Part shown: in pieces, positions 11,792 through 51,533 of the stretch | Position numbering within the stretch: the stretch's first letter is position 1 | Layout of the letters: the number at the start of each line of letters is the position of its first letter | From: Candidatus Woesearchaeota archaeon CG10_big_fil_rev_8_21_14_0_10_37_12 | Lineage (GTDB): Archaea; Nanobdellota; Nanobdellia; Woesearchaeales; ARS49 | DNA: 64,000 nucleotides | Assembly: GCA_002762795.1 (NCBI GenBank) | Contig: PCYA01000017.1 | Location: forward strand, 801 to 64,800 | Direction of reading: 5' to 3' | Program-made: the position numbers and the translations under genes | Notes under the pieces: model-generated | What the model was told of the DNA's origin: nothing | Seen by the model: the letters and a program-made list of their open reading frames with translations, nothing else | The model's database searches: none

Positions 11792-12949
11792 ATGAGTGGA
11801 GCAGGAACTAGTAGAGGCATATCTCACTATGACCCATATACGGGAAGATATTCTGTAAATGGATCTGAAGGAAAAAGAAATGCTATTATTGGCAAATCTG
11901 GGCCTATGATTGGCCTTTTTTATGTTGTAGATGGACTAGCAAACGGAAATTGTCCTGTCAGGATTCATGGAGAAACAGGCACTGGAAAAGAATCAGTGGC
12001 GCGTGCTTTACATTATAATGGTAAACGTGCTCAGTTCCCTTTCGTTATTGAAAATTGTGGAGGAGTGCCTCCTCAGCTTTTAGAAGATAGACTATTTGGT
12101 CACGTAAAAGGCGCGTTTACAGGTGCAGTCAATTCATATTCTGGAAGTATTGTTAACGCAAATGGAGGCACGCTGTTTTTGGATGAAATTGGTGATATGC
12201 CTCTTGAATTGCAGGGTAAACTTCTTCGTGTGCTTGAAGAACGTGAAGTTGTTCCATTGGGAAGTACAACACCTGTGCCTGTTGATTTTCGTCTTGTTAC
12301 TGCAACACATAGAGATTTAGAAGAATTAACTCGAGAAAGAAGGTTCAGAAAAGATTTGTTTTACCGAATTTCTGGCTGGAACTTAGATGTTCCTTCACTG
12401 AGTGAACGAGAAGATGATGTATTGCAGCTAACAGATTATTTTCTTTCACGATACGCCCCAGATAAAGATATTGCATTATCCAACAAATTAATTCAGGAGT
12501 TGAAGCATCATTCTTGGCCAGGCAACATACGCCAATTGGAATCCGCAGTGCACCGAGCAGTAACAGCGCATTATGGATTTTTTAACTCGCAAAATGATAT
12601 TTTATTAGTTTCTGATTTTGAACCTAACTTTGGTGCACATACAACTCTCGATACAAAACAAACTCCGCGCCTTCACTATCTGAAAGTAGGCGTTGTCTCA
12701 TATTCAGAACTACAACAAATTGATGGCGTCCTTACTGGAAATGCACTCCGTCAAGTTCTTTCTGCGCATGGACAACCAATTTCTCAAAATGGAAACGCAC
12801 CAGAACTCTATGTTGTTACCGAAAGAACACTTCCTTACTTGGTTTCACCACAAGCAGCAAACCGTTCTGCAACAGTAGGAAGACTAGATGTTCTGCTTAC
12901 AGAAAGAGACGCAGTTATACAAGCTTTAAGAACCTCTCTTAATACCTAA
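11792..12949 (+). CDS. sigma-54 interaction (bEBP-type AAA+) domain protein, no receiver or HTH domain
   Basis: Walker A GETGTGKE, ...NCGGVPPQLLEDRLFGHVKGAFTGA with an intact GAFTGA loop, Walker B GGTLFLDEIGDM, Arg fingers, WPGNIRQL; CGT/CTT-rich codon usage unlike neighbours. Confidence 0.85.
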   Translation: MSGAGTSRGISHYDPYTGRYSVNGSEGKRNAIIGKSGPMIGLFYVVDGLANGNCPVRIHGETGTGKESVARALHYNGKRAQFPFVIENCGGVPPQLLEDRLFGHVKGAFTGAVNSYSGSIVNANGGTLFLDEIGDMPLELQGKLLRVLEEREVVPLGSTTPVPVDFRLVTATHRDLEELTRERRFRKDLFYRISGWNLDVPSLSEREDDVLQLTDYFLSRYAPDKDIALSNKLIQELKHHSWPGNIRQLESAVHRAVTAHYGFFNSQNDILLVSDFEPNFGAHTTLDTKQTPRLHYLKVGVVSYSELQQIDGVLTGNALRQVLSAHGQPISQNGNAPELYVVTERTLPYLVSPQAANRSATVGRLDVLLTERDAVIQALRTSLNT

Positions 12950-13582
12950 CACTTTTAATTTTCTGTGTAAAGTTTCAAATCGCAAACCGATTTTTCTGGC
13001 AGTTTTGGAAATATTCCATTTGTTTTCTTCTAATGCTTTTTCAAAATACATTTTTTCAAACTCTAATTCTGCTTCTTTTAATGTTGCAGGTTTTTCAGGA
13101 AGTTCTTTGCTAATGTCTTCAGAAAGTTGTGGAGCTTCAGCATAAAATGCTTTGTATCGATCAAGACTTAACGCGCTTTTGTACTGTTCTAAAGAGTCTT
13201 GAATTATGTCTTGCACGGCCAAGCGCTTCACGTATTTTCCTTTTTGCATGATGTCGCGAAATTTTTCAACTTCAATTTTCATTTCAGCAATAAAGCGATG
13301 AATGCTTCGCCTATCAACATTGGCAAATTTTGCAACATCTGCAACATTGCCAAAATTTAATTGCAATAGCTTAGCAACATATTCTTTTTTGAATTTCTTT
13401 TTTGCTTGCTTGAACTTTAAATTTGTATTAATTTCAAAATCCAGCAAGCTGCTTTTTTTGAGCTTGTCAGAAATATCGCTTTCTAGCTCAGTAATTGTAA
13501 TGCCGAGTTTTGTGTGCATAGCATCTTCTAACAAAGGTTTAATTTTTTGTTCTACAAGGCGCTCTAATTGCTCATCAATCAT
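12926..13582 (-). CDS. protein with two Fis-type HTH_8 domains
   Basis: FGNVADVAKFANVDRRSIHRF and EENKWNISKTARKIGLRFETLHRKLK both match the HTH_8 consensus (GN.s.AA..LGisR.TLyRKLK); convergent with, and overlapping by 24 nt, the AAA+ gene. Confidence 0.7.
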   Translation of the reverse strand: MIDEQLERLVEQKIKPLLEDAMHTKLGITITELESDISDKLKKSSLLDFEINTNLKFKQAKKKFKKEYVAKLLQLNFGNVADVAKFANVDRRSIHRFIAEMKIEVEKFRDIMQKGKYVKRLAVQDIIQDSLEQYKSALSLDRYKAFYAEAPQLSEDISKELPEKPATLKEAELEFEKMYFEKALEENKWNISKTARKIGLRFETLHRKLKVLGIKRGS

Positions 13583-22734: not shown

Positions 22735-23481
22735 TTGCTAACAAACATAAAAAAAGGTGACATGATGAATTTATTATCAATTGGAGGCAGTTCTATGAAT
22801 AAGAAAGCAAACTCAGGAATAGCGCTAGTTATATTCGGCGTTGTAGGAATAATAGCAGTTATAGGTCTTGTACTTTTGTTCACTCGTGCAAGCGCAGCAG
22901 GAGCAGCCGTTGGCAATTCTTATGGATGGCAAGGAGAGCAACGAGGTATTGCAGAAACGTATGAGCAAATACCGGGAGGATACTCTTACGCACCAGAACT
23001 TGTTTATCCAGGATATGACTTGCCACCAATCACTGCTGAAACAGCAGGCAGAACTCCAATTTATATCATTCGGGGAGCAAGAGGCTTAGAAAATATGCCG
23101 TCTTGCAACTATGATGTTGGTATTATAACTGGTATGGCTGCACCATCAGACTTGTTAAGTTGTTATGTTGTACCAACAAGTGGAAAGTCTCAGACAAGCG
23201 ATGCATCAGGAAATTTTAACAGAGCAAGCGCGGCAGAAATAAGAGAACCACATGGAACACTTGGACGAACAGGAGGACATGTTTTCTGCTACTTTAACAG
23301 TCCGGGATCAGCATATTATGATGAGGACATGGCGAGACAAACACTCAATCAAAAAATAAGATACAATCAACAATCAGGTAAAAAACCAGGTATCGCAAAT
23401 GTCTGGAGCTTTACATATGTTAACGGAGTAGAAGTGGCAGAATGCGGCAGCTCAACAGAGGCATACGTATTCCCACAATAA
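22735..23481 (+). CDS. secreted/anchored protein, possible class-III (pilin-like) signal, C-terminal YVFPQ
   Basis: MNKKANSGIALVIFGVVGIIAVIGLVLLF N-terminus (basic then hydrophobic), ends EAYVFPQ. Confidence 0.45.
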   Translation: MLTNIKKGDMMNLLSIGGSSMNKKANSGIALVIFGVVGIIAVIGLVLLFTRASAAGAAVGNSYGWQGEQRGIAETYEQIPGGYSYAPELVYPGYDLPPITAETAGRTPIYIIRGARGLENMPSCNYDVGIITGMAAPSDLLSCYVVPTSGKSQTSDASGNFNRASAAEIREPHGTLGRTGGHVFCYFNSPGSAYYDEDMARQTLNQKIRYNQQSGKKPGIANVWSFTYVNGVEVAECGSSTEAYVFPQ

Positions 23482-23491
23482 AGGTGATACT

Positions 23492-24022
23492 ATGAAAAAA
23501 GGAAACACAAAAGTCGGATTAACATTATTAGCAGCAGTAGCACTAACTGCACTAGCAGGATTAGTGTTTACGTTCACTGGAGTTAATGGTGTACAAGGAG
23601 CAGTAAGCATACAACCATCGACTGCACCATTAAATGCGCCATATTATGATGCTGGCAACACAGCAATTGTGCCGCAAAGAGAACCTCCACTCTACTTAAT
23701 TTTAGCTCCGAGAGATATGCCTATGCTTGAAGCAAAACGACTTTGCCAACAGCAAATAGCAGTGCAGGGCACTTCAAGATACGGACAATTAGAAGGGCAA
23801 ACAAGTTGTTTTGCAACAGAAGCACGATTGATTGAACAACTCAAAAATACTCCTGGAAACGAGCTTGACAGAACACTTCTTCGAGAAGGGAATTACTGGA
23901 GAGTTATGAGTTGTTTTGCACAGGGAACCATAACAAAAGAACACATTTTCCAACAAACAGGTTGGTCAGGAGTTCTGGGAATCCCTGTCTGTAAACTGGA
24001 ACCTTATGTGTTCGCACAATAA
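23492..24022 (+). CDS. secreted/anchored protein, possible class-III signal, C-terminal YVFAQ
   Basis: MKKGNTKVGLTLLAAVALTALAGLVF N-terminus, ends EPYVFAQ; 10-nt gap from the previous gene, SD aaaggtga. Confidence 0.45.
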   Translation: MKKGNTKVGLTLLAAVALTALAGLVFTFTGVNGVQGAVSIQPSTAPLNAPYYDAGNTAIVPQREPPLYLILAPRDMPMLEAKRLCQQQIAVQGTSRYGQLEGQTSCFATEARLIEQLKNTPGNELDRTLLREGNYWRVMSCFAQGTITKEHIFQQTGWSGVLGIPVCKLEPYVFAQ

Positions 24023-24444: not shown

Positions 24445-25323
24445 ATGAAATTTCTAATTATTGGAGATTTGCATGGAGCAAAACCAAAAATTTTTGTTAA
24501 GGATTTTGATGTAATAATTGCACCAGGAGATTTTTGTTCAGACGGGTTGCGCAAGTACATGTTTCAAGCACTAATAAAACGTATGAAAACTGACGAGGAT
24601 ATTGATTGGTATGATTTTATCTCAAGACAAAAAGCAAAACAAGCAATTCAAAAATCACTTCGTGATGGAAGAAAAATACTGAACTTCCTCAATTCATTTA
24701 ACAAACCTGTTTATGTCCTGCCGGGAAATTGGGACTGGACACCCCACGAAACAAAGTGGAAGTACCTTCAACAGAACCACTGGAAGAAAATTGTTGGTGA
24801 TCTGAAAAACATAAAAGACTGCCATTTTAAAAATGTCCAATTTAAAAAATTACAATTTGTTGGTCACGGTATTTCAAGCGGGCCAGAAAAATTAATTGTT
24901 TCAAAAAGACTTGAAAGCGAACAGGCATCTCTGTTCAAAGCGTATAATAAATATTTCAAAAAAATCAGTACGTTATTTATGCGTGCAAAAAAGAACAAAA
25001 AACCAGTCATTTTTCTGTCTCATAATGTGCCATATTATACGAAACTTGATAAAGTAATCAACAAGAAATCTCCTCGAAATGGTGAACATTGCGGGTCAAT
25101 CTTGGCACGAGAACTTATTTTAAAACACAAACCGCTTGTTTGCATAGGTGGGCACATGCACGAACATTTTGGTAAAGATAAAATTGGCAAAACAATTGTT
25201 ATTAATGCAGGATTTGGAAAAAATGTGAACACGCTGCTTGAAATTAAAAATGGAAAAATAACAAAACTTCAATTTTATCTGAACAAGAAAAAAACAAAAG
25301 AAAAACATGGACGGTATTGGTGA
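24445..25323 (+). CDS. calcineurin-like metallophosphoesterase
   Basis: GDLHG, PGDF, GNWDW, GHMHEHF metal-binding motifs. Confidence 0.7.
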   Translation: MKFLIIGDLHGAKPKIFVKDFDVIIAPGDFCSDGLRKYMFQALIKRMKTDEDIDWYDFISRQKAKQAIQKSLRDGRKILNFLNSFNKPVYVLPGNWDWTPHETKWKYLQQNHWKKIVGDLKNIKDCHFKNVQFKKLQFVGHGISSGPEKLIVSKRLESEQASLFKAYNKYFKKISTLFMRAKKNKKPVIFLSHNVPYYTKLDKVINKKSPRNGEHCGSILARELILKHKPLVCIGGHMHEHFGKDKIGKTIVINAGFGKNVNTLLEIKNGKITKLQFYLNKKKTKEKHGRYW

Positions 25324-25332
25324 GTAAGAGTT

Positions 25333-25767
25333 TTATTTAAGACTACCATAGAACTCGCTTGGTCTGTTTGCAGGGCGTTGATGCACACCAGATTTTACTT
25401 GCACATCTTTAACATCTGTAACGCCTGACAAATTTGTAGTAATTTTTGCTGCAAGTTCTCGTGCACGTCTTTCCAAGTCAGTATCGCCTTCAATCGTTAA
25501 AAGAATTTCAGGACTTCTTGATGCACCAGAAGTGTATGTTTTTGCACTATATGCAACTGCTGCTTGATCAACAGCTTGTGCAACAGTATCTAAATATCGT
25601 TGTCTTTCTGTACTTGTTCCTTCAACTTTAAATTCAAGAACAACAGCTCCAACAGGACTTGTTGTTTGTTCAAATGCCCAGTAGCCTTTAAAACCAGTGT
25701 CAGTGTCGTATCTGGTGTCTTTTTGTTCTGTAATCTCTGTTCTTGATAGTCTTGTTGAATTATTCAT
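25333..25767 (-). CDS. hypothetical protein
   Basis: 144 aa; strong SD acggggg upstream; composition looks GC-richer than average. Confidence 0.4.
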   Translation of the reverse strand: MNNSTRLSRTEITEQKDTRYDTDTGFKGYWAFEQTTSPVGAVVLEFKVEGTSTERQRYLDTVAQAVDQAAVAYSAKTYTSGASRSPEILLTIEGDTDLERRARELAAKITTNLSGVTDVKDVQVKSGVHQRPANRPSEFYGSLK

Positions 25768-25834
25768 TTTTACCCCCGTACGGGTTTATAGAATAAAGAA
25801 CTATATAAAGGTTTCTTAAATTGTCACTGGTTAG

Positions 25835-26785
25835 TTAAGAACTTCTTCGGTCGCCGTTGAATCTGCCTGTTGTTTTACCGTATGCTTTTCCAGCAGCAGC
25901 CAACAAACGAGTGGTATATTTTTTTAAACGGCTTGTTTCTGGCTTAATATGCAACGGAATTGGTCTTACTGATTCTCCAACTTCGACGATGCGAACTGCA
26001 TTTCGCTCGTGTTTGGAGTCAAGTAAAGCTTCGTCAGCAGCAGTTCGCAATCCAGCAAACCGCTCAAGCATATACGGTTCATCGCCGTGTTCAATACGGA
26101 TGACATCTTCTGCAGTAGGTTTCCATAATGCAACTCCGACGCTGATTGTAACGGGAATTCTCGCATTTTCTCCATATCTTAAACTATCGTGCTTGAATTC
26201 GTAGCCAGCAACACGTTCAACCAATTGTTTTGCACGATGATATGCGACTTCTGCAGGAGTATTGTACTTAGCCCTTTTTAAATCAATTTGGTCCATCACT
26301 GCAGCAAACTCATCACCGCCAATGTGACCCAGCGCATCACCTTTTCTTGCCCACGCTTCCATGTGTCTACCAAGTCCAATTATTACGTAATCGCCTGCAT
26401 CATGGCCATGATGATCATTAATTTGTTTAAATTTATCTCCGTCGAGAAAAACAACTGCAAGAGGTCTCCTTGTTTTTCTGTATTCTCGCATCCCTCTGCT
26501 TAATGCATTTGGACCAGCAACTTCTTGAAAATAGGTTTTGTTAAACAAGCCAGTCATAGGATCAATAGCAACTCTGCGTTCTAAGGCATAAACTTTTGCT
26601 TCTAAAGCTTCTTTTTGATATTTGAGGAGGTCTCTTTCTGTTGTAACTCTTCGTAAATCGCGTTCAGCAGTGTTAACCCACCAGCTATTAAATTCAGCAA
26701 CATCAGCAAGAGCTATGCGTTCTGCTAAGTGTCTGTCTTCTTTGTTTTGATATGCTTCGTAGGTTTCTTCACCCATTTTCTTCAC
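25835..26785 (-). CDS. GGDEF-domain diguanylate cyclase with N-terminal coiled-coil
   Basis: DPMTGLFNK...RPLAVVFLDGDKFKQINDHHGHDAGDYVI...RKGDALGHIGGDEFAAV: intact GGDEF active site and RxxD I-site five residues upstream; no TM or sensor domain. Confidence 0.85.
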   Translation of the reverse strand: MKKMGEETYEAYQNKEDRHLAERIALADVAEFNSWWVNTAERDLRRVTTERDLLKYQKEALEAKVYALERRVAIDPMTGLFNKTYFQEVAGPNALSRGMREYRKTRRPLAVVFLDGDKFKQINDHHGHDAGDYVIIGLGRHMEAWARKGDALGHIGGDEFAAVMDQIDLKRAKYNTPAEVAYHRAKQLVERVAGYEFKHDSLRYGENARIPVTISVGVALWKPTAEDVIRIEHGDEPYMLERFAGLRTAADEALLDSKHERNAVRIVEVGESVRPIPLHIKPETSRLKKYTTRLLAAAGKAYGKTTGRFNGDRRSS

Positions 26786-27014
26786 TCACTTTATTTGAGA
26801 GTTAGCAGGCTGTTTAAAAAACTTTCGCCATGTTACTACGAATAAGTGATTTTTCTAACATTGTTTCTTTTTTGTTGTTCTTTTGAGTATTCTTTTCCAC
26901 ATTTAAGACTCACTGAACTGTCTTTTATTGAATAAGAATCATCCTCGAAACATTTATAAAAGAAACTGCCTTTAAAAAGCAACGAGCCTGAACAGGGTGA
27001 AAAAAGGGGTATAA

Positions 27015-29030
27015 ATGCACAAGCGGGCACAGCTTACGATATTTATCATCATAGGCATAATTCTTCTTATCAGCATAGCAACAGTTGTCTACTTCACGCA
27101 GAAAAAAGCAACACAACCGCTGGAACACATAAGCCCTGTTCCAGAAGACGTTAAACCAGTTTATGATTACGTAACGACTTGTTTAAATCAAATAAGCAAA
27201 GATGGAATTAACTTGCTTGGAGCACAAGGCGGTCACATAAACATCCCGTCAATAATTGAACGGACACCAACAGCATACATTGCAAATGATCCAGCAGAAA
27301 TATCAAAACTCCCGCACTGGTATTATGAAGGAGAAGACAGAACACCAACGCTGGAATTCATGCAAACAGAGTTATCGAGATATGTTCGTGATAACTTGCC
27401 GGAATGTATTAACAACTTTGCAGCATTTCAACCAAGATATTCTATAAGACCAATCACTAACAGCGTTCCTGTTATAACAATTGCAGACGAAACAGTGCTT
27501 GTGCAACTCAATTGGATCCTTCAAGTTGACACTCCAGAACGAACAACACAAATTGAAACATTCATCACAAACCATCCAGTAAAACTCAAACAAGCATGGC
27601 AGCTTGCAAAAGATGTCATGGAAACAGAAAACAAAGAAGACTGGCTAGAAAACTTAACAATAGATTTCATGAGTGCGAACACAAACATACCAATAAGTGG
27701 AATGGAATTCAGTTGTGGAAGAAAAAGATGGCTGCTCAGTCAAGTAAAAAAAGAATTGCAAGACATGCTTTATTACAATGTTCCATACATAAGACTTGCG
27801 AACACAAATTTGCCCGAACCAATAGAATCAGAAAGAACATATGAAAACTTGAAAAAAGAAAAACAAAAAATTCACAATGATTTGTTGAAAGGAAATCAAC
27901 CAGACTGGCCAGAAGACACGCCAACAGATGCATATGAAATTAACAGAATGACATGGAATACGGGCACGAGAAAAACAGATCTTAAAGCAGCATTTCAATA
28001 CCAGCCGCAATGGACAATGCAATTAAACGCGCAACCAAACTCAGGAAATCAATTAGTAAGCGGTAAATTTCAAGGAGCACGAAAATACCTCAGATTCTTC
28101 TGCATAAATCAGTGGCATTTTACATACGATGTGATTTACCCAATAAAACTTGCAATCAAAGATGAAACTGCATTTTATGGAGATGGCTATTTGTTCCAAA
28201 TGAGCTTCCCTGTTATTATCCAAGATAATGCGCCAAGCAGAGCATACTATGGCCACAGACGATTTGATGATATAATAACAGACGGAGAATTCTGCACTAC
28301 ATTCAGCAACCAACGAGCAGACATCAGAGTCAGAGGTTTGGAAGAAGGCGCAATTTTTGCAGAAGAACTTGAAGAAGTAAACATAAGCTATTCATGCTTT
28401 AATCAATATTGCACATTAGGACAAACACGAGCAGACTCTGCAGGAATCATTCGCTTGCAAACATATCTTCCGCAAGGTTGCGGCAATCCAGTAATTCATG
28501 CAGAAAAAGAAGGTTATATTCCAGCGCAAATACATGCAACAGAAGAAAACGTTGAACTCACACTAACACAACTCAAAAAAATGAATTACACAATCATGGT
28601 TCACCCATACAATCCTGTAACAAACACATGGCTGGACAGTCAGATAACAACTATATCACCGACTAGAGATCCAACAAGAAAAGCAAGTATTGCAGTTATT
28701 GTAAACACAGCAGATTATGAGCAATACTATGAATATCCAAGCCCGCAAAACAATACTCAAGCAGATTTTGTATACGGAGATGCTAGATATGATCTTGATA
28801 TAATTTTGCTTAAAGGCGAAAACCCAATAGGCGGCTATCACGCAGAAAACATCAGCATAACATACGAAGAGGTTGCAGGAATGAATAATGCAATATTCCA
28901 TGTCATAGAATGGCAAGGTGCACTCGACAGAAACTTTGATCCGGTAAACATGTTTGAGTTCATCTACGAAACAGGAATGCACAGAGGCAAACAATACGCA
29001 GAAGTACTCAAACCAACATTCACACCATGA
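27015..29030 (+). CDS. large N-terminally anchored extracellular protein
   Basis: 671 aa, one N-terminal TM helix, many N-glycosylation sequons and paired Cys; stop overlaps the next start (ATGA). Confidence 0.6.
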   Translation: MHKRAQLTIFIIIGIILLISIATVVYFTQKKATQPLEHISPVPEDVKPVYDYVTTCLNQISKDGINLLGAQGGHINIPSIIERTPTAYIANDPAEISKLPHWYYEGEDRTPTLEFMQTELSRYVRDNLPECINNFAAFQPRYSIRPITNSVPVITIADETVLVQLNWILQVDTPERTTQIETFITNHPVKLKQAWQLAKDVMETENKEDWLENLTIDFMSANTNIPISGMEFSCGRKRWLLSQVKKELQDMLYYNVPYIRLANTNLPEPIESERTYENLKKEKQKIHNDLLKGNQPDWPEDTPTDAYEINRMTWNTGTRKTDLKAAFQYQPQWTMQLNAQPNSGNQLVSGKFQGARKYLRFFCINQWHFTYDVIYPIKLAIKDETAFYGDGYLFQMSFPVIIQDNAPSRAYYGHRRFDDIITDGEFCTTFSNQRADIRVRGLEEGAIFAEELEEVNISYSCFNQYCTLGQTRADSAGIIRLQTYLPQGCGNPVIHAEKEGYIPAQIHATEENVELTLTQLKKMNYTIMVHPYNPVTNTWLDSQITTISPTRDPTRKASIAVIVNTADYEQYYEYPSPQNNTQADFVYGDARYDLDIILLKGENPIGGYHAENISITYEEVAGMNNAIFHVIEWQGALDRNFDPVNMFEFIYETGMHRGKQYAEVLKPTFTP

Positions 29031-32000
29031 AACAAACAAAATTATTGCTATTCATTTTTATTTTGCTAGCAACGCTTGTAAACGCGCAAGAAATAAACAT
29101 AACAAACGTGAATGTTAATCACACAAACCAAACAAGTGTTATCACATGGCAAACACAGCCAGCAGCAACAAGCCTTCTTCAATACGGCATTAATAATCTT
29201 GCACAAAACGCATCAGACAACAACGTAACAGTGCAACATAGAATAGAAATACCAACAACGCCAGGAGAAACATACCAGTACATCATTACAAGCTGTGCAA
29301 ACCAAAACTGCACAAGCATGCAACCAGCAACATTCACTGCAGGAAACTTCTTTGTCACAGCAGACATACCAACACATGTACGAACAGCAAATATTGATAT
29401 TACAGGAAGAACACAATCAGGAGCAACAATAAGATTAATACTTAACGGAAGAGACTTGCGAACATTAACCACGCAAACAAATACATTCTTGTTCCGAGAT
29501 ATTCAGCTCGACTCATCTAATAATACAATCATTATCCGCGCAACATCAGCAACAGGAGAAACAACACAAAAAAACTATCCTGTACGACTTGATAACTCTC
29601 CAGCAAGAGTATCAATAAACACAACTGCATTCACAACAGAAAAACCAGCACCATTGCGAATAGTAACTTCAGAGCCAGTACAATTGAACATCACAATACA
29701 ACAACTGGATGATGGAAATGAAACAAAAGAAGTGCAACATAATATCACTCTCGCAGGAACAATACAAATTCCAGTAGAATTATACGATGGAAGAAACAGG
29801 ATCAGCATTATTGCAACAGATTATGCAGGATTCACAACACACACAGAAACAGAAATTTATTATGATTTTGGACCGCCACAATTCTTAGAAACAAACCTTA
29901 ACCAATTAACGCCAAGCTACAGCAGATTAATACGCGTAAAAGGAACACTCAGCGAACCAGCAAGCGTGACAGTATTTCTCAACAATGAACCAGAAGAAAC
30001 AGTACAAACAGACAGCAACAATAAGTTCAACATACCAATAAACCTCAAACAATTCGCACAACTTGACAGAAGCCAAGCACCAAACAGAACAACATTGGAA
30101 ACAGGACTAGCATGGCGAAACAACATAAGATTAGAAGCAATAGATGCAGCAGGAAGAATAACAGCAATACAAGGAGATGTTGTTTACGCAAGCTGTTCAC
30201 AAGATGGACTCATAGATGTTGTTGTAACAGAGCCGCTGCCAGACATACTGAACACAAGATTATTAGTGGAAGGATTGCAGCAAGTCGGATTGTCGTTTAA
30301 CTACAGTTACAGAGGAGATCAGGAAGCAATCATCAGACCAGCAGACATAAGAATGCATAAACTCACACCAGGACAGGCATTCCAAAATGAATATGACAAC
30401 GCGCTCGCTACAGTTGCAAAACCAGGAGTAAAAGCAGCAAGCCAAACAGACGGCATAGGATATATCCAAGTAAACTTCAACTCCATAGAAGATCCATGGG
30501 CATTACCAGAAACAGGAAACGCGCCGCAAGCAACAGAACCTCCTTCAAATAATCCAACACTGTTTGACAAAGAAGATAGACTATCAGATCATAGAAAAGG
30601 AGACTGCTTGCTTCCGGGCTTTGGATGCATGCGAATTCTACTACAAATAGAAATACCATACCAAGAAAGCAGCGCAAGATATTACACAGGATCACAAAGA
30701 ACAACAACACAAACAGGGCAACAACCATTAGCACAAGATCTTGTTGACCTAAATGAACGCGTGCACAGAACATGCTTACCAATAGAAGTAGCAATAGACA
30801 GAAGAATACCTCCAGAAAAACTCGGAAGCAGTTTCCTGAACCACACATCAAGAGTTCTTGGCGAAATTGTAGAGAACATAGACAAAGTACTCAAACCAGT
30901 GGAAAATGTTGGACGATTCTTGTTCTACTCCTGTCTTGCAAGCACAGGATTAATGTACTTGCCAAGCCTAAACGAAAGATGGACGTGCAAATACAGCAAC
31001 GCTGTAAACTTATTTAACAGAGACCTAGACGAATCAGCAACATTCAATGAGGGAGTTGCTGCAATAGGAAAATGTGAAGATTTCTACACAGGAGAAGCAC
31101 TTGAAAACTGCAAATCGTGCAGCGAAGCAAAAACAACATTCAACAATTACAAATACTATTACCAGCAAATCTGCGACAGAGTAATGTGCGGAGCAGCACC
31201 AAGCTTACAAACTTACTTGCGAGTAAAAGGACGAACAACACTCGAAAAAATAGAAGGATCAGGATATGAAGCAGGAAGCGACTGTGCAATGTGGATGAAA
31301 GAAAAAGGCAAAATCGGCACAGGAAAAAGAGGAGCAGTTATTTTTTCGTATCAGGAAATAGAAGGAATATACAAAGACTGGTTGGAACACCAAAGTGATG
31401 ATGCAGATGACACAGGATTTTCAGGGGAAGTGAACTGTGCAGGGTTGCACCCAGCTGACGCAAGCTGTTGCGGATATGAATACATGCAGGAATGGAGCAG
31501 CGCTTGCGGAGTAAGCATAGGTGGTGGAGGTCTTGACTTATTCGATGAAATTAAAGAAAGCACATGCTTGAGTGCGCAAAACGCAAACAAAAATGAAATA
31601 CCGGGAGCAGGAGACACAACGATACAATGCAGCAGATTAACAAATGCTCTCAGTGGATTCTGTGATGCAAATGGAGGACCGCCACTAGAACCAATACGAG
31701 TTATGCACTTTGAAGGCGGAGACTCAGGAGTAACAGGCAAAGTACGCCAATTAGGATTAGCAACTAACAAGGAAAAATTCATGTACGTCCTAATAAAAGA
31801 AAATACAGGAGGGCAAACACAAGAAAAGCACTCAATAATGCTTGGATTTGTAGCTGAGAAAGTAAAATACGCACAAACACCGCAATCAGCAACATTTGCA
31901 GAAGAAGATATATTCAGCATTAATACGCAAACAGAAGCAAGAGTTATGCCTGGAGGGTATGAGCTACAACAACAATTCTTCAGAGAAGAACAAACAGCAG

Positions 32001-35000
32001 CTTATTATCAAGGACAGCTTGATGATAACTTTTACACACAATTCGGCAACTATCTTTGTAACCAAGCAGGATATTCTGGACTGCCTTGCCAAGATGGAGA
32101 CTTTACACGAGATGATGCCAAAGACGTTTACGCAAGAGTCATGCAATACATTGGAGATCCAGAACAAGAATACATTGTCAACCCAAGCTCTGGAGTAATA
32201 AATGCAGCACGATGCTTGTGCTTCCCAACACTCATTAGCTTCCTAAAAACTTGGAGGAATATACTGCAAGCAGTGCAAAACTGCGTTAACAGCATAATAT
32301 TAACAGGAGACGGAGATGCAGGAATCTGCCAAGAAGGAGTAACAATACCAATGTGCGATTTGTTATACGATGCAATTGCGTGTTTCACACAACGATTCGG
32401 AGCAGGAGGAGGACGAATAGGACTAGGAGGAGGAGATCCAATAGGAGCTCTCACCAGCGCAGGGGCACAAGTATCACGAACAGTAGAAAGCAGATACGGT
32501 ACGACAAACATGTATCAGGCAACATTCGGAGACAGAAAACTTGTGCATAGCATTTGTTTGTTTGCATTCACAGGAACATGGAACCTTGATCCTTCTGCAT
32601 TATTTGACCAAGCACTCGAAGACGTTCCAACAGAAAGTTATACATTGTTGTATCCTTGTCAGAGAAGGTACGTAAGCTATGATCCTACAACAACACCGGG
32701 AGGTTTAGTAACATGGGTGTACAATTTCGGTGCAGGAATAGCAGCAGGAGCAAACTTAGACGTAGACTTTAAACTCAAATGCAGTGCAGACAGAAGTTGT
32801 CTTCCATCAGAAGGTTTTGAAGGCGGCAAGTGTGATTGTGAAGAATCAGGACAAGAAAAATACTTGCCAATCAGACCACAAGGAACACCAACAAGAGTAG
32901 CAAAAGGAGAAATTTTCAATCAACCAGTGTACTTCACGTTAAAGGGTAATCCAAGAGATGGTTCAACAAGATATGATACGTTAATTATGACTCACAGATG
33001 GAGAGATCAAGGGAAAATAGCAGAAAAACAAACAGAATGCAAAATAGGCCAGGCAGGAGGACCGTTAAGCGTGCCTCCGCATTGTAAATTTGACGCGGCA
33101 ACATTAAGCTTTAGGTGCATGCTTGGAGAAGACGAAGGAGCAATCAGTTTATTGGGCTCAACAGTAGATGCACAGCACAACATACCAAACCCGGCATTTG
33201 CATTAGGAGAAGAACTCAACATTACGCTCGATGTAAGGCAAGCATACCCAAGACAAGACGCAATGTTCAACAAATATTTGGAGTACGCAGTCATGAATTC
33301 AGCAGGGCAAACAGTTGCAACAAATAAAGACGAAGCACTGCATCCCTTGACAACAAACGGCGATTACAAAATAAGAACAACAAACAGAGGAATATTCAGA
33401 ACACAATTAACTGTTACAGAAGACTGGTTCGGAACGCAGCAACAAACAGGCAGAAATTACCAGACAAGCACATGGAACAAAAATGAGCCTAGTGTGTTGT
33501 CGCCAAATGATGAAGGATTAATCGCAGATGTTTTGTTAACAGATGCTACAGGAAATACAAAAACAGAACAATCAGCGTTTGTTATCGAATTTTCCAATGA
33601 AAATGACCAAACAACATGGAAACTATTTGATGGAGGATCAAGAAGAAAATCAGCAGCAGGAATACAAAAAGGAAACCAATTAACAGGAGGAGTGTATAAC
33701 CCAACAACCACAATCATCTTCTATCAGGGAACAACAGCACAATCACAAATTGTCAGAGATCCAAATGCACCAGCAGGAGTACGAGTTGTACAAAGTGCAA
33801 ACGCAAATATCAGAATAACATTCAACAATATGCCTGTGCTTGCGCCAGGAGAACGAAAACAAATCTTAGTAGAATGGCAAAAACAACCAGAACTCGGAGC
33901 ATGCACTGACGAAACAAAAAGACAACAACCACAAAGATTCACCATAACATTCTCAGCATTTGATGCTGACGAAAACGGAAACCCAAGCAACCAAGTAAGC
34001 GTAGATCCAAACACAGGAACACCAGCACAATTGCAAGTACCATTTTTTGCAGTATGTTCAGAACCTTCAGCAATTGCACATTTGGAAACAGCAAACAATG
34101 AAACAATGATCAAACAATTCATGAGAGACATCCACGACGAATTTGGAAAAGCAAAAATAGAACAACAAGAATATCTTACAAGAATTGATGCATTTTTAGC
34201 ATCATCATACCCATTAGATACTCAGCAAGGAAAAGGAGATGTAGTATCAAGATTAGAGGCATTATTAACATATGAATCATTACATTACAACAAAATACAA
34301 GGATTTGTTAATAGACTAACAAGCTTGCCTACAGAGAACAGAATAGCAGGAGTTGATGAATTTGAAACACTTCTGAACAGATATAATGTTGAATTAGGAG
34401 TTGCAATTAGAGTAATCAGAGGAATGAAAGATGACATCAGACAAAGCAGTTTAAGACAAGAAATAGGACCAGCATTACTAGAGATTAAAACAAAACTTAC
34501 AGAATTAATGCAGACTAAAGACCAAGCAATACAGGCAACACAAGAAATAATCTTATTCAGACCAACAACTACAACACAACAATTAAGCCAAAGAGACCCA
34601 GCAACAACACCTTTGTTAGCAAATGATAGGAAAATATTGGAAGAAATAAAAAGATTGATTGAACGTCATCAACAAATAACTCCCATTTCCGCAAAAAATA
34701 GTCAAATAATAGAAATAAATAGGCTTTTCAACTATACTTTTACAGGTGTCACTGTTGAGTATGTTTATAACTTTATTAAAGCAATTAATATAACACAAAC
34801 CACACATTCTCAAACATATAGTGGGCACATAGGCAGACTTTCTTCAGAAGAACGAACAACCAGCATAGTTCAACTTGAAATAGAACTCATGCAATTCTTA
34901 ACACATACAAGATCAGTGCTGCCAAACCTTCAATTAACTGCGTATAAACAACAATTACAACAAATAAATTCAAGTTTCACACAAATCACACAAGCAGAAG

Positions 35001-35830
35001 ACGCAGTGCTAGCATACATTACTCAAAGATTAACAGCGCCAGAAGCGCAAGTAACAGCACAACCAACAATAGACGCGTCAACAAAAGAAGGACAATTGCA
35101 AGCACTCAAAACAGCAATAGAAACAGCAAGACGTGATCGAGAACCTTATTTGCTTACTTTCCAAGATTATGTAACTAATCCAGCAACAATGCCAAATGAT
35201 CATGTACAATTTAGAAATAGTTACGCGAGAGCGCAACAAGTAGAAATACAAAACATGCAAGCATTAGAAACAATACAAATAAATCAATTACCAGACATAA
35301 TTAAACAAGACGTAGAATTGCTTAAGTTCAATATGGGAACAATTACAACAGGAAGTATTGGCAGGTTTATACAGAACATACAAAGTGCTGATTTGCAACA
35401 ACTTAAGAGTCAAGTTCCTGAAATGCACCAGAAATATCAGCTAATAACTGGCCAAGAAGATAGCATTCTCAGACAAATAGACCAAGAACTCAGTTCTTCT
35501 GGATCGGGTGGAGCAGCAGGACCACCACAAGTTCAAACACCTCCGGCACAACCACAACAAACAACACTAGAAGATCAACAAAAACTTGGTGCACTCAAAA
35601 TCATCATTGAAGCAAACCAACAAATAAGAACTAATCACAAACAAAGAATAACAACATATCTCCCGGCACTTGCACCTGGAAATAAAGAAACAGTCAGAAA
35701 CCTAATACGAGCAATACAAGAAACAGAAAGCAGATACGCGAGAAATGTTGAATTAGCTCATATTGGGTTGTCCAGTCAAGAGTTAAGAGCAATACCACAA
35801 CTTGCAGCATTAAAATTCACAACAGACTAA
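29027..35830 (+). CDS. giant secreted surface protein (2267 aa): sequon-rich N-terminus, Cys-rich middle, Gln-rich coiled-coil C-terminal third
   Basis: Signal peptide MKQTKLLLFIFILLATLVNAQE, >60 NxS/T sequons, dense Cys clusters between aa 600-1300, Q-rich heptad-like region aa 1550-2260. Confidence 0.7.
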   Translation: MKQTKLLLFIFILLATLVNAQEINITNVNVNHTNQTSVITWQTQPAATSLLQYGINNLAQNASDNNVTVQHRIEIPTTPGETYQYIITSCANQNCTSMQPATFTAGNFFVTADIPTHVRTANIDITGRTQSGATIRLILNGRDLRTLTTQTNTFLFRDIQLDSSNNTIIIRATSATGETTQKNYPVRLDNSPARVSINTTAFTTEKPAPLRIVTSEPVQLNITIQQLDDGNETKEVQHNITLAGTIQIPVELYDGRNRISIIATDYAGFTTHTETEIYYDFGPPQFLETNLNQLTPSYSRLIRVKGTLSEPASVTVFLNNEPEETVQTDSNNKFNIPINLKQFAQLDRSQAPNRTTLETGLAWRNNIRLEAIDAAGRITAIQGDVVYASCSQDGLIDVVVTEPLPDILNTRLLVEGLQQVGLSFNYSYRGDQEAIIRPADIRMHKLTPGQAFQNEYDNALATVAKPGVKAASQTDGIGYIQVNFNSIEDPWALPETGNAPQATEPPSNNPTLFDKEDRLSDHRKGDCLLPGFGCMRILLQIEIPYQESSARYYTGSQRTTTQTGQQPLAQDLVDLNERVHRTCLPIEVAIDRRIPPEKLGSSFLNHTSRVLGEIVENIDKVLKPVENVGRFLFYSCLASTGLMYLPSLNERWTCKYSNAVNLFNRDLDESATFNEGVAAIGKCEDFYTGEALENCKSCSEAKTTFNNYKYYYQQICDRVMCGAAPSLQTYLRVKGRTTLEKIEGSGYEAGSDCAMWMKEKGKIGTGKRGAVIFSYQEIEGIYKDWLEHQSDDADDTGFSGEVNCAGLHPADASCCGYEYMQEWSSACGVSIGGGGLDLFDEIKESTCLSAQNANKNEIPGAGDTTIQCSRLTNALSGFCDANGGPPLEPIRVMHFEGGDSGVTGKVRQLGLATNKEKFMYVLIKENTGGQTQEKHSIMLGFVAEKVKYAQTPQSATFAEEDIFSINTQTEARVMPGGYELQQQFFREEQTAAYYQGQLDDNFYTQFGNYLCNQAGYSGLPCQDGDFTRDDAKDVYARVMQYIGDPEQEYIVNPSSGVINAARCLCFPTLISFLKTWRNILQAVQNCVNSIILTGDGDAGICQEGVTIPMCDLLYDAIACFTQRFGAGGGRIGLGGGDPIGALTSAGAQVSRTVESRYGTTNMYQATFGDRKLVHSICLFAFTGTWNLDPSALFDQALEDVPTESYTLLYPCQRRYVSYDPTTTPGGLVTWVYNFGAGIAAGANLDVDFKLKCSADRSCLPSEGFEGGKCDCEESGQEKYLPIRPQGTPTRVAKGEIFNQPVYFTLKGNPRDGSTRYDTLIMTHRWRDQGKIAEKQTECKIGQAGGPLSVPPHCKFDAATLSFRCMLGEDEGAISLLGSTVDAQHNIPNPAFALGEELNITLDVRQAYPRQDAMFNKYLEYAVMNSAGQTVATNKDEALHPLTTNGDYKIRTTNRGIFRTQLTVTEDWFGTQQQTGRNYQTSTWNKNEPSVLSPNDEGLIADVLLTDATGNTKTEQSAFVIEFSNENDQTTWKLFDGGSRRKSAAGIQKGNQLTGGVYNPTTTIIFYQGTTAQSQIVRDPNAPAGVRVVQSANANIRITFNNMPVLAPGERKQILVEWQKQPELGACTDETKRQQPQRFTITFSAFDADENGNPSNQVSVDPNTGTPAQLQVPFFAVCSEPSAIAHLETANNETMIKQFMRDIHDEFGKAKIEQQEYLTRIDAFLASSYPLDTQQGKGDVVSRLEALLTYESLHYNKIQGFVNRLTSLPTENRIAGVDEFETLLNRYNVELGVAIRVIRGMKDDIRQSSLRQEIGPALLEIKTKLTELMQTKDQAIQATQEIILFRPTTTTQQLSQRDPATTPLLANDRKILEEIKRLIERHQQITPISAKNSQIIEINRLFNYTFTGVTVEYVYNFIKAINITQTTHSQTYSGHIGRLSSEERTTSIVQLEIELMQFLTHTRSVLPNLQLTAYKQQLQQINSSFTQITQAEDAVLAYITQRLTAPEAQVTAQPTIDASTKEGQLQALKTAIETARRDREPYLLTFQDYVTNPATMPNDHVQFRNSYARAQQVEIQNMQALETIQINQLPDIIKQDVELLKFNMGTITTGSIGRFIQNIQSADLQQLKSQVPEMHQKYQLITGQEDSILRQIDQELSSSGSGGAAGPPQVQTPPAQPQQTTLEDQQKLGALKIIIEANQQIRTNHKQRITTYLPALAPGNKETVRNLIRAIQETESRYARNVELAHIGLSSQELRAIPQLAALKFTTD

Positions 35831-36610: not shown

Positions 36611-37168
36611 TTGGCACATATGGTTCAAAAAAGAAACAATGTTGAGTTGGAAATTATAGATCTATTGTTTAAAAAAGAGAATCATGTCAGAGGAATATCT
36701 AAAAAACTAAATGAATCTCATTCTACAATATCGAGAAAATTAAACTATCTTAAAGATGAAAACGCGATTGATTATGTGCGGGAAGGAAAAAATAAGGTGT
36801 TTTTTCTGAAAAAAAACATCGTTGCACAAAGTTACATTCTAACCTCAGAAATACACAAACTAATAAAATTATTGAGAATATGCCCAGAATTAAGCGTTAT
36901 TTTTGAAGAAATGCTAAATAAAACAGATGAAAAATTAATCATTCTTTTCGGATCCTACGCAAAAGGGCTTGCTAAAAAAGACAGCGATATAGATGTTTAT
37001 ATTGAGACAAAAAACAAAACCGTTAAAAAAATTGTTGAGGATATAAATTCAAAAATCAGTGTTAAAATTGGTACATTCGATATTGACTCTCCGCTCGTTA
37101 AGGAAATAATAAAAGATCACATAATTATCAGAGGAGTTGAAAAATTTTATGAAAAACAATTTTCTTGA
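36611..37168 (+). CDS. winged-HTH fused to a minimal nucleotidyltransferase (MNT antitoxin-like)
   Basis: N-terminal wHTH (HVRGISKKLNESHSTISRKLNYL), then LFGSYAKGLAKKDSDIDVYIE = GSx9-10DxD Pol-beta NTase motif. Confidence 0.7.
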   Translation: MAHMVQKRNNVELEIIDLLFKKENHVRGISKKLNESHSTISRKLNYLKDENAIDYVREGKNKVFFLKKNIVAQSYILTSEIHKLIKLLRICPELSVIFEEMLNKTDEKLIILFGSYAKGLAKKDSDIDVYIETKNKTVKKIVEDINSKISVKIGTFDIDSPLVKEIIKDHIIIRGVEKFYEKQFS

Positions 37169-37628
37169 AAAACTAAAAAAAGAAGAAAAACTAGAACTGA
37201 TCGACCCTTCAGAGAACATCCATGATTCTTACTTGGAAAAATCCAATAACTGTATGAAAGCAGCAAAATTATTGTTGCAAAACAAATTATATGAGAACTC
37301 TATCGGGATGTCTTATTATGCGATGTATGACTTGCTTGTAGCATTATTATTCAGAGTAGGAATTAAATGCGAGAATCACTCAGCAGCAATTCTATTGCTC
37401 AAATCACTATTTGAAAATGATGAATTGTTTAAACTTATTTCGAATGCAAAAAAAGAAAGAATTGATAAACAATATTATATAACGACTGAAAAAGATACTG
37501 TGACTGAAGAAATAGCAAAAGAATTATTAACTCATGCGGAATACTTTGTTTTAAATCTGAAATCAATTATTGCCAGATTAAAAAACGAGGATGTTCCTAA
37601 AATCAGAGAAAAATTCAAAACATTATAA
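37137..37628 (+). CDS. HEPN-domain protein (toxin-like partner of the MNT)
   Basis: All-helical 163 aa; overlaps the MNT gene by 32 nt; HEPN-MNT gene order; Rx4-6H not clearly assignable. Confidence 0.55.
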   Translation: MKNFMKNNFLEKLKKEEKLELIDPSENIHDSYLEKSNNCMKAAKLLLQNKLYENSIGMSYYAMYDLLVALLFRVGIKCENHSAAILLLKSLFENDELFKLISNAKKERIDKQYYITTEKDTVTEEIAKELLTHAEYFVLNLKSIIARLKNEDVPKIREKFKTL

Positions 37629-37638
37629 CACTGGAAAA

Positions 37639-37690
37639 ATGATCCTTACAAAAACCTTACCAAACGCGTGGAATTTGTTTGTTAAACACA
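37639..37690 (+). repeat. direct repeat 2 (52 bp) matching 36528-36576
   Basis: atgatccttacaaaaaccttaccaaacgcgtggaatttgtttgttaaacaca. Confidence 0.6.
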
Positions 37691-38448
37691 AGCAATACCT
37701 TATATTATTTGTATTGTTAGACTTTGTCTTTTTGTTCTTTACAGCACAAGCCCATTTAACTTATTTTATTCCGACAGCAGATGCGGCAAACAGAGCAGGA
37801 GAAATTATCACGCAAGAACTGCAAACACTGCAAATGACAGATGCATACCAACTGGACGCTATTCTAATGCAAAATTCGCAGTTTAAACAAGCATATCATG
37901 ACTTATTGCAAGGCATAATTTACTTTTTTATCACCATGTTTATCATCTGGATAGTTATCAGGTCAGCAATCTGGCACATCAGCTACAAAATAATTCATAA
38001 AAAAACAAACTGGAAAACAAACGTGCTCAAATTTGCACTGTTTAGCCTTTTTTGGTTTGTTGTTGTTGCAATCGTGTTCGTTCTTTACAGTATATCAACA
38101 GGAAGCACAGCAACATTGTTACCAATAGTTGGAAATCCGTTAATTAGCATATTGATGATTGCTCTGTTTGTTCTAATTTATTATTTCAGTCAGATAAGTT
38201 TTGCTCTTGTGCCGGTACAACAAAGTTTTAATAAGACCTTTGCTTACGGAGTAAAATATGCCAAGAAATTTGTTCCAGTGGCACTTATAAATGCAATAAT
38301 TGTGTTCCTTGCACTCAGTCTGCCACTTAACTGGCTGCAAACATACCCAATAATATCACTTGCAATAATCATAATCATCAGCATACCAGCACTCGCATTT
38401 GCACGAGTGCATATAATCGGAGCAACAGAATGGGTAAAAAAATATTAA
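37639..38448 (+). CDS. polytopic membrane protein
   Basis: Start set at ATG 37639 (MILTKTLPNAWNLF), since this N-terminus is what is duplicated at 36528; ORF track extends to 37591; 6 TM helices. Confidence 0.5.
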   Translation: MILTKTLPNAWNLFVKHKQYLILFVLLDFVFLFFTAQAHLTYFIPTADAANRAGEIITQELQTLQMTDAYQLDAILMQNSQFKQAYHDLLQGIIYFFITMFIIWIVIRSAIWHISYKIIHKKTNWKTNVLKFALFSLFWFVVVAIVFVLYSISTGSTATLLPIVGNPLISILMIALFVLIYYFSQISFALVPVQQSFNKTFAYGVKYAKKFVPVALINAIIVFLALSLPLNWLQTYPIISLAIIIIISIPALAFARVHIIGATEWVKKY

Positions 38449-39104
38449 TAGCACTTGTTTGTCTGGTAATAATAGTTATTTTATTACTTCTTGCACTGCA
38501 ATATCCAGTTATACAACAAACAAAAACAGTGCAGACAACACCACAACAATATCCTGAACAACAGGAAATGGTTGAACAAGAACAACTATTAGAATTACCA
38601 ACTGAATTGGAGATACCAACGCCAAGAAGCCCTGCACTGGAAACAAGACCGGCAGCAACACCAAAAGCACCGGAGCCAGAACTATCACCGACAGGAGTTT
38701 CAATAGACAAAGTATTCCCACAAACAGTGCAGTTCTGGGTAAATACAATCAAAGTACCTGACACTACAGGTGCAACTGAGTACACGTACAATTACATTCC
38801 GGTACAAGCAAGAGAACTCAAAACATTTGCCGGAAGTTTCGGACCATATGCAGAAGACCCAATAGAACACATAATAATACTTCTTTGTGCAGAACTTACA
38901 AAAATAACAGCAGCACCATCATGTCAGCCAGTCAACATTGTATTCAGAGATGGTTATGTGAGCTTTGCAAAAGGCTACCAATATGACGAATATATTGGTG
39001 GGATGGCTGCAAAAGATTATACGGCTTACTATGAAATACACTTAAAAGAAACAGACACAATCATCAGAACAAGCAACAAAGCGTTTGTGAGAACAGTTAA
39101 TTAA
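38430..39104 (+). CDS. secreted protein with Pro/Glu/Gln-rich linker
   Basis: N-terminal TM/signal, PEQQEMVEQEQLLELPTELEIPTPRSP linker, ~120-aa C-terminal domain. Confidence 0.45.
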   Translation: MGKKILIALVCLVIIVILLLLALQYPVIQQTKTVQTTPQQYPEQQEMVEQEQLLELPTELEIPTPRSPALETRPAATPKAPEPELSPTGVSIDKVFPQTVQFWVNTIKVPDTTGATEYTYNYIPVQARELKTFAGSFGPYAEDPIEHIIILLCAELTKITAAPSCQPVNIVFRDGYVSFAKGYQYDEYIGGMAAKDYTAYYEIHLKETDTIIRTSNKAFVRTVN

Positions 39105-51440: not shown

Positions 51441-51533
51441 TTCTTGGGAACCGCTGGTCATTTTTTCTTATGATTTTCTGACCAGACACTGGTGTTGAGC
51501 ACCGCATTGCGATCACCAGTGGTTCTTGACATG
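51441..51533 (+). repeat. MITE-like element copy C
   Basis: Inverted repeats cttgggaaccgctggtc and gatcaccagtggttcttgacat; right half ...cactggtgttgagcacc..gcgatcaccagtggttcttgacat near-identical to copy B; hairpins 51330-51440 precede it. Confidence 0.6.

Follow-up and report, generated by a model that had tools for sequence, protein, structure and literature searches.

A gene for a GGDEF-domain protein with intact active-site and inhibitory-site motifs in the chromosome of a Woesearchaeota archaeon

Introduction

Signaling through cyclic diguanylate (c-di-GMP) is generally considered absent from archaea; a preliminary description of the DNA studied here took this view, and it agrees with reviews from 2018 to 2023 (PMC10249747). 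The sole accepted archaeal GGDEF protein is RCIX2274 of Methanocella arvoryzae (CAJ37382), which is encoded in a complete genome (PMC5847659, bioRxiv 10.1101/2021.11.05.467447), and the REC-GGDEF proteins of 'Candidatus Micrarchaeum acidiphilum', which are WspR-like, have an inactivated GGDEF (PMC5847659). Open reading frames (ORFs) for GGDEF and HD-GYP proteins in archaeal metagenome-assembled genomes (MAGs) are suspected contamination (PMC5847659, bioRxiv 10.1101/2021.11.05.467447), and the presence of GGDEF domains on archaeal contigs is said to be something that 'needs to be confirmed' (PMC10086821). In this study we analyzed a GGDEF-protein gene that lies at 25835..26785 on the minus strand of a 64,000-nucleotide stretch of contig PCYA01000017.1 (hereafter the window, to which all positions refer), from the DPANN archaeon Candidatus Woesearchaeota archaeon CG10_big_fil_rev_8_21_14_0_10_37_12. 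No paper on this particular gene was found in the literature.

The described proteins closest to its product in predicted structure or in sequence are bacterial diguanylate cyclases: SiaD of Pseudomonas aeruginosa (PA0169), in which a helical stalk is joined to a GGDEF domain; DgcB of Caulobacter crescentus and WspR, in which a coiled coil tethers the GGDEF domain; and TpbB/YfiN of P. aeruginosa (PA1120), a membrane protein with a HAMP domain and a periplasmic PAS domain. The archaeal protein is predicted to have the stalk-GGDEF layout of the first three, and its gene is embedded among archaeal genes.

Results

The gene ends in a stop codon at 25835-25837 and encodes 316 amino acids if translation starts at a GTG at 26785, or 313 if it starts at an ATG at 26776, which is the start called in GenBank. 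The protein is identical to GenBank PIN74725.1, recorded as 'hypothetical protein COV18_05895' of Candidatus Woesearchaeota archaeon CG10. In the profile search that the preliminary description had proposed, it scored 89.5 bits against PF00990, well over the cut-off of 23.8 bits (E=2.5e-25), and it likewise scored 88.7 bits against TIGR00254 (cut-off 37.4), matches that lie far beyond chance. The catalytic domain, delimited by Pfam, TIGRFAM, alignment, AlphaFold2 and Foldseek, spans residues 74-269 (25979..26566, minus strand) and is complete, as first described: every motif quoted at that time is present, namely DPMTGLFN (residues 75-82), FLDGDKFKQINDHHGHDAGD (113-132), RKGD (147-150) and GGDEF (156-160). 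The RxxD inhibitory site (I-site), R147-K-G-D150 (26336..26347, minus strand), stands exactly five residues (ALGHI) before the active-site (A-site) motif, G156-G-D-E-F160 (26306..26320, minus strand). Compared with bacterial homologues, the domain also carries four small, lineage-specific insertions.

We assessed conservation in an alignment of the protein with 52 homologues, the I-site and the column of residue H154 being counted in 119 homologues. The protein keeps 25 of the 27 conserved columns, that is, all 15 invariant ones and 10 of the 12 that are near-invariant. The metal ligands D115, D158 and E159 all fall in invariant columns, as do the residues of the A-site motif; the guanine-specifying N123 and D132 are invariant in 52/52 homologues; the phosphate-binding K258 is invariant too, and the column of R261 holds R or K in 41/52. 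An RxxD occurs at the position of the I-site in 117 of the 119 homologues. We take D115 to be the equivalent of PleD D327, D158/E159 of the PleD metal ligands E370/E371, N123 of N335, D132 of D344, K258 of K442 and R261 of R446. In PleD, N335 and D344 have a role in guanine recognition (PMC7186502). Sequence and alignment therefore bear out both the intact active site and the RxxD I-site of the preliminary description.

An alignment-based AlphaFold2 model of the monomer (mean predicted local distance difference test score, pLDDT, 85.3) consists of a long helix, the GGDEF fold and a tail predicted with low confidence. The helix covers residues 15-73 (59 residues; 26567..26743, minus strand) and is modeled as one continuous helix with a pLDDT of 87-97; it is a putative dimerizing coiled-coil stalk, with a heptad core made up of L54/L61/L68 and V65/V72 in its last three heptads. 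This long predicted helix agrees with the earlier statement that nothing but a coiled-coil N-terminus precedes the domain, a statement that passed over the roughly 47-residue tail at the other end. The tail (residues 270-316; 25838..25978, minus strand) is basic, is predicted with a pLDDT of 40-63 and a low-confidence amphipathic helix at residues 284-303, and matched no family in Pfam or NCBIfam. Within the GGDEF domain the pLDDT is mostly above 87. Neither a signal peptide nor a transmembrane segment was found in the protein. When the model was compared with the PDB using Foldseek, only diguanylate cyclases were returned, more than 50 of them with a probability of 1.00 (SiaD, WspR, DgcB, PleD and DosC included), and the top matches include the stalk-plus-GGDEF cyclases SiaD (7e6g), WspR (3bre) and DgcB (6ttr). 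Template-modeling scores (TM-scores) normalized to the target were 0.76-0.85 for isolated GGDEF domains, values that correspond to the GGDEF/palm-like alpha-beta fold.

The gene is a genuine part of a Woesearchaeota chromosome. An identical protein is encoded on four contigs, the longest of which measures 784,236 bp and belongs to Woesearchaeota; the gene is 25 kb and 37 kb away from the two ends of the window and lies in the interior of this 784-kb contig. Moreover, an independent Joint Genome Institute (JGI) contig (sample 3300004210, 40.8 kb) agrees with window positions 15835-36776 at 100.000% identity, a match of 20,942 bp that runs without a mismatch or gap across the two junctions that bound the GGDEF gene. 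On its left the locus is accompanied by genes for a NOG1-type GTPase, FttA/aCPSF1 with its KH_TffA domain, the proteasome beta subunit and Pth2, and on its right by genes for Rpb4/RpoF, L21e, DUF655, the exosome proteins Rrp41/42/Rrp4, SBDS, the proteasome alpha subunit and the RNase P protein Pop5. With archaeal or eukaryote-type genes on both sides, the assignment to an archaeal genome stands, and the mis-binned bacterial fragment that the preliminary description had kept in mind finds no support, given the 784-kb contig and an independent assembly that repeats the junctions. The locus passes all tests for contamination that sequence allows.

The preliminary description had also considered the GGDEF gene and a neighbor at 25333-25767 to be GC-richer than the surrounding DNA, and had taken this as a sign of horizontal acquisition. 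This neighbor, placed upstream at that time, is in fact on the downstream side of the GGDEF gene, both being on the minus strand. It is an orphan gene (ORFan) for 144 amino acids, and its GC is only 0.384; the GGDEF gene does stand out, having a GC of 0.422 (mean, 0.369±0.031), the second highest of 66 ORFs. By codon position, the GC of the GGDEF gene amounts to 0.568 (first), 0.407 (second) and 0.290 (third, GC3), and its GC3 compares with a window mean of 0.281±0.046. Since the raised GC is thus confined to the first two codon positions, it reflects amino-acid composition and is not evidence of acquisition. The synonymous-codon log-likelihood of the gene (-1.039, against -0.995±0.075) gives a z of about -0.6, and the tetranucleotide distance of the 1.5-kb segments covering 25.0-27.0 kb has a z of about 0 (rank 57-58 of 126), so that the tetranucleotide check proposed earlier reveals no deviation there. 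DNA that is equally GC-rich occurs elsewhere in the window, at 22.7-24.0 kb and 30-34 kb. The first of these regions contains two Pfam-less genes (22735-24022, plus strand; 248 and 176 amino acids) with N-terminal hydrophobic anchors and a GC of 0.416, on a level with the GGDEF gene, and such GC is therefore normal for some native genes. Because GC3, codon use and tetranucleotides are all host-typical, the GC excess loses its meaning as a sign of horizontal acquisition, and a GC or tetranucleotide island is ruled out.

The signals upstream of the two genes are of the local kind as well. A TATA-like box, TTTTTTAAA, lies at 26813..26821 (minus strand; a consensus match 37-45 nt upstream of the ATG at 26776) and is followed by a Shine-Dalgarno-like element, GTGAGTGA; as the ATG fits both signals better, it is more likely than the GTG at 26785 to be the start of the GGDEF gene. 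The ORFan is preceded by a canonical archaeal TATA box, TTTATATA (25802..25809, minus strand), at -42 from its ATG, and by a GGGGGT Shine-Dalgarno element 4 nt before this ATG, and the TATA box makes it possible that the ORFan has a promoter of its own. Both TATA-like boxes are found 42-43 nt before the ATG, an arrangement that recurs at about ten more of the window's leading genes, upstream of which the same class of motif stands at about -30 to -45. In composition and regulatory signals alike the gene is 'native', which contradicts both a recent transfer and mis-binning.

Homologues were sought in a protein search of 5.8 billion clusters, of which the best 120 were listed, and in a genome search of 185,579 species with one genome each. 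Among the 120 listed homologues, identity to sequences other than the protein itself was at most 47%, and this over a third of the query, and it was below 40% wherever more than a third was covered; all of those with an organism named are bacterial. The 80 best genome loci are likewise all bacterial and are spread over Bacillota, Pseudomonadota, Desulfobacterota, Cyanobacteriota and Dormibacterota, with best segments of uniformly 27-40% identity. In the domain alignment the protein is the third most divergent of 53. Bacterial ancestry is ultimately the best reading of these sequence comparisons, and what speaks for it is the phyletic distribution of the homologues, not GC. No donor can be named, as the matches extend over many phyla at this uniform level of identity, and a viral origin was rejected, since viral contigs hold only GGDEFs that are 27-39% identical and nothing closer. 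Most simply read, this lineage acquired the gene long ago from a bacterial donor beyond identification, and the gene has by now been domesticated. That its catalytic and allosteric residues were kept after full amelioration suggests purifying selection.

A divergent intergenic region of 229 bp (26786..27014) separates the GGDEF gene from a cluster on the plus strand (27015-35830) that encodes a 671-amino-acid membrane-anchored protein and a 2267-amino-acid secreted giant protein. Apart from a Cadherin-like hit below threshold, the cluster is practically without Pfam matches, and it may constitute a cell-surface or attachment apparatus. The 671-amino-acid gene has 142 homologues, the named ones being almost all from Woesearchaeota. 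In three of these relatives (loci L002-L004) its homologue belongs to a conserved same-strand operon for proteins of about 715, 1050, 600, 295 and 690 amino acids and then the giant protein, and the first four genes of this operon, which come before the homologue, are not present in the window; this six-gene version, made up of large proteins, includes a 712-amino-acid paralogue of the 671-amino-acid protein. The GGDEF gene and the ORFan occupy the boundary of that operon in the opposite orientation, and the intergenic region is a synteny breakpoint relative to these other Woesearchaeota. The breakpoint is seen against organisms that are ~50% identical, in a lineage whose gene order is generally poorly conserved, and it says little on the timing of the acquisition. 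Mobile-element borders around the gene were considered and rejected, with no search aimed at flanking repeats: the closest integrase, a tyrosine recombinase (688-1494, plus strand; Phage_integrase, E=6e-45) encoded near the left end of the window, is 24 kb away and has no apparent link to the GGDEF gene. Beyond the giant-protein gene, two genes, for an MNT nucleotidyltransferase with an ArsR-type helix-turn-helix (HTH) and for a HEPN protein, make up a toxin-antitoxin-like pair (36611-37628, plus strand), which together with a 150-amino-acid ORF separates the giant-protein gene from two downstream partners (37591-39104); in relative L002 these two partners come directly after the giant gene.

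On the other side, the ORFan (GenBank PIN74724.1; 25333..25767, minus strand) comes next after the GGDEF gene, 67 bp from it and in the same orientation, and its GC3 of 0.166 and synonymous-codon log-likelihood of -0.885 indicate a good fit to host codon use. It matched no family in Pfam, NCBIfam or PADLOC and had no homologue among the 5.8 billion clusters; a search of 1.8 billion representatives gave only marginal short-repeat matches, of ~30-45 residues in two proteins of roughly 1845 amino acids, which look like a short strand motif. A single-sequence AlphaFold2 model of its product (pLDDT 48) was too poor for a fold search. Lacking a family, a real homologue and a usable model, the ORFan was rejected as a SiaC-like or other known partner; a partnership of some kind with the GGDEF protein is possible. 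Neither protein matched a defence-system family of PADLOC-DB at E<=0.01, and membership in an anti-phage defence system was discarded on this ground.

A gene for a calcineurin-type metallophosphoesterase (24445-25323, plus strand) converges with the ORFan, and 9 bp separate their stop codons; its product matches the PADLOC candidate family PDC-S10 (1.8e-12). It has 54 metagenomic relatives with best-segment identities of 37-74% and no conserved surrounding gene order. As a co-acquired, dedicated c-di-GMP hydrolase it was rejected, since none of the 54 has a GGDEF gene or the ORFan within 6 kb; a moonlighting role is conceivable.

Farther to the left, the window encodes a bacterial-type sigma-54-interaction AAA+ protein (11792-12949, plus strand; PF00158, E=4e-59; PADLOC RtcR_PspF2, 4e-84) in which the GAFTGA motif and Walker A are intact, while REC, CARF and HTH domains are lacking. 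The 3' end of its gene overlaps a convergent gene (12926-13582, minus strand) whose product ends in a Fis-type HTH_8. Archaea are not known to have sigma-54. We rejected this AAA+ protein as a FleQ-like c-di-GMP receptor, as its post-Walker-A sequence, KESVARA, is not of the FleQ type, which we take to be '...RN'.

Two further features of the window are recorded here in their own right. Between FtsZ (50111-51175, minus strand) and an ORF at 51683-52078 (plus strand) lies a GC-rich stretch of ~340 nt (51190-51530) with about seven near-perfect hairpins and an RNA folding z, against 100 shuffles, of -5.95 (plus strand) and -5.54 (minus strand). It has no Rfam match at E<=1, and nowhere in the window is codon fit poorer than in the mechanical ORF within it (51205-51516). 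Either a structured RNA not described so far or, upstream of ftsZ, an array of palindromic sites for binding may be present here. At 63756-63853 (minus strand) there is a 98-nt tRNA (Rfam, 53.9 bits) that ARAGORN reports as 'tRNA-???' with a four-base anticodon call, and that is probably an archaeal intron-containing tRNA.

Discussion

We hold with moderate confidence that the GGDEF gene encodes a stalk-dimerized, product-inhibited and sensor-less diguanylate cyclase that resembles SiaD and DgcB. In such an enzyme, two subunits would pair via the N-terminal helix (residues 15-73), and the pairing would juxtapose their two GGDEF domains. Each domain would bind one guanosine triphosphate (GTP) with Mg2+ through D115, D158/E159, N123, D132, K258 and R261; the domain pair would then condense the two GTP molecules to c-di-GMP, and c-di-GMP, by binding to the R147xxD150 I-site, would inhibit the enzyme. 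Because the protein has no sensory domain, its output might be set by transcription or the level of expression, or else by a protein binding at the stalk, in the way that SiaC acts on SiaD, in which case the ORFan would be the sole candidate regulator.

A broader claim would be that a DPANN archaeon makes c-di-GMP and signals via effectors outside the known bacterial receptor types. We regard this as a doubtful possibility. The route to an effect may in that case lead through the lineage-unique 144-amino-acid neighbor, or through control of the divergent, Woesearchaeota-wide cluster of giant secreted proteins, by which the cell may attach to a host. If the claim is true, c-di-GMP signaling reaches the archaeal domain, and does so with a new class of receptor.

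Several observations weigh against a working cyclase of this kind. The heptad signal of the proposed stalk is weak over the whole 75 residues and clear only at ~54-72, the last ~20 of the helix. No archaeon has so far been found to contain c-di-GMP (PMC10249747). Among the ~75 ORFs of the window, which were scanned against Pfam and/or NCBIfam, there is no EAL, HD-GYP, PilZ or MshEN domain and no second GGDEF, nor does the window have an Rfam match to a c-di-GMP riboswitch; the preliminary description, which had seen no EAL, HD-GYP or PilZ partner in the window, was right in this. A six-frame motif scan of the window gave a single PilZ-pattern match, a chance one inside FttA, and the Pfam and NCBIfam searches found no SiaA, SiaB or SiaC neighbor (PP2C, SiaB or SiaC-like). 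Finally, neither the GGDEF gene nor the ORFan occurs at L002-L004 or at the 54 metagenomic loci of metallophosphoesterase relatives, which makes the gene a singleton among the archaeal loci examined.

These absences from the window and from related loci, like the position of the gene at a synteny breakpoint, would suit an enzyme that is active but a functionally isolated leftover of gene transfer, one that, without receptors and phosphodiesterases, yields little or no physiologically meaningful c-di-GMP. We think this unlikely: full amelioration and a local identity of no more than 47% among the matches listed imply long residence, the survival of 25 of 27 conserved columns and of both functional sites argues for purifying selection, and the absence of partners pertains to 64 kb of a contig of at least 784 kb.

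The remaining points against an active cyclase concern three residues. H154, two residues before GGDEF, occupies a near-invariant position that is Arg in 118 of the 119 homologues and His in only one (P0014); K83 takes the place of the usual Arg, and L255 that of the usual Tyr. H154 is the most notable of the three. Its position, which lies outside the canonical definition of a cyclase, is that of PleD R366, a residue among the substrate contacts (PMC7186502). The three deviations could reduce or abolish activity, and with the four insertions they are what one might expect of a catalytically impaired GGDEF domain acting as a nucleotide-binding receptor or scaffold, whether for GTP or, through the I-site, for c-di-GMP. 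This, too, strikes us as improbable. A GGDEF domain that has degenerated into a receptor has, as a rule, lost its metal ligands or its GG[D/E]EF motif, whereas all canonical residues are present here, and P0014, which is encoded in a bacterial lipopolysaccharide gene cluster, shares the rare His, keeps GGDEF and is annotated at its source as a diguanylate cyclase. A receptor role would, in addition, need a second source of c-di-GMP, and none is visible.

A cyclase might also make a different product, such as 3',3'-cyclic GMP-AMP (3',3'-cGAMP) or cyclic di-AMP (c-di-AMP), in the manner of Hypr GGDEFs, or only linear pppGpG. Archaea do use c-di-AMP and cyclic oligoadenylates (PMC10249747), and the periphery of the active site deviates at H154. 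Even so, this is very unlikely, for at the equivalent of PleD D344, where Hypr enzymes have Ser, the protein has an Asp (D132), and it also keeps N123 (N335). Ser at the D344 position is reportedly the mark of the cGAMP-forming Hypr GGDEFs, as Hallberg et al. are said to have found in 2016; with D132 retained, the archaeal protein has neither Ser nor Thr there.

The preliminary description had suggested a signal directed at a bacterial host or partner; that c-di-GMP is exported to manipulate such an organism is, in our view, scarcely credible. DPANN archaea are generally regarded as episymbionts, and the GGDEF gene adjoins, and is divergent from, the conserved cluster of giant secreted proteins, but no relative conserves this adjacency, the enzyme has neither a signal peptide nor a transmembrane segment, no c-di-GMP exporter is encoded near its gene, and there is no evidence for a bacterial partner. 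As for a bacterial contaminant or a chimeric assembly within an archaeal bin, the probability is negligible: specialists see MAG-borne archaeal c-di-GMP genes as probable contamination (PMC5847659, bioRxiv 10.1101/2021.11.05.467447) and all organism-named homologues are bacterial, but the gene sits inside a 784-kb contig between archaeal genes, both of its junctions recur in 20.9 kb of identical independent sequence, its GC3, codon use and tetranucleotides are host-typical, its TATA boxes are archaeal-type by consensus, and no bacterial sequence among the matches listed is more than 47% identical, even locally.

A stalked diguanylate cyclase of the SiaD and DgcB kind thus remains the reading that we prefer. 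As a protein it would be an ordinary, minimal GGDEF cyclase; what is unusual is its host and the quality of the evidence for its residence there, which make it a clean candidate for testing whether an archaeal protein makes c-di-GMP. No pathway is visible around the gene, and its biological reach stays limited as long as no receptors have been found. DPANN genomes hold many bacterial genes, and the window has a second bacterial-type signaling gene, that of the sigma-54-type AAA+ protein; for the specialist in c-di-GMP or archaeal signaling, the gene is a useful and testable lead, and not a first-order surprise.

Among known systems, SiaD (7e6g) is the best Foldseek match (E=1.6e-14), and it has in common with the archaeal protein the helical stalk (a predicted one in the latter) and GGDEF domain, the lack of a sensor and the RxxD I-site. 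The SiaD family NF038266 of NCBIfam aligns over 62-228 of its 252 positions with 74.8 bits, far under the equivalog cut-off of 290; on account of this score, and as no SiaA/B/C genes were found, orthology with SiaD was rejected. With DgcB (6ttr; target-normalized TM-score 0.82-0.84) and WspR (3bre, 3i5c), to which it is 22-26% identical in sequence, the protein shares, by prediction, a coiled-coil-tethered GGDEF domain and inhibition through the I-site; it differs from them in its longer predicted stalk, its four insertions and its C-terminal tail, and it has no REC domain, which WspR has. In sequence, the best match of solved structure is the GGDEF domain of TpbB/YfiN (7a7e, 4iob; E=2.9e-16), and the best NCBIfam match is DgcN/YfiN (NF007423; 1.1e-29, 103.6 against a cut-off of 325); the layout from RxxD to GGDEF is common to both proteins, but the archaeal one has neither the PAS nor the HAMP domain of YfiN.

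Within the archaea, and compared by description, CAJ37382 of M. arvoryzae is a REC-PAS-PocR-GGDEF-HD-GYP fusion of a methanogen, whereas the protein reported here is a minimal stalk-GGDEF protein of a DPANN archaeon, with no linked hydrolase. With the REC-GGDEF proteins of 'Ca. Micrarchaeum acidiphilum' it shares a DPANN host, but it has no REC domain, and its GGDEF motif is intact.

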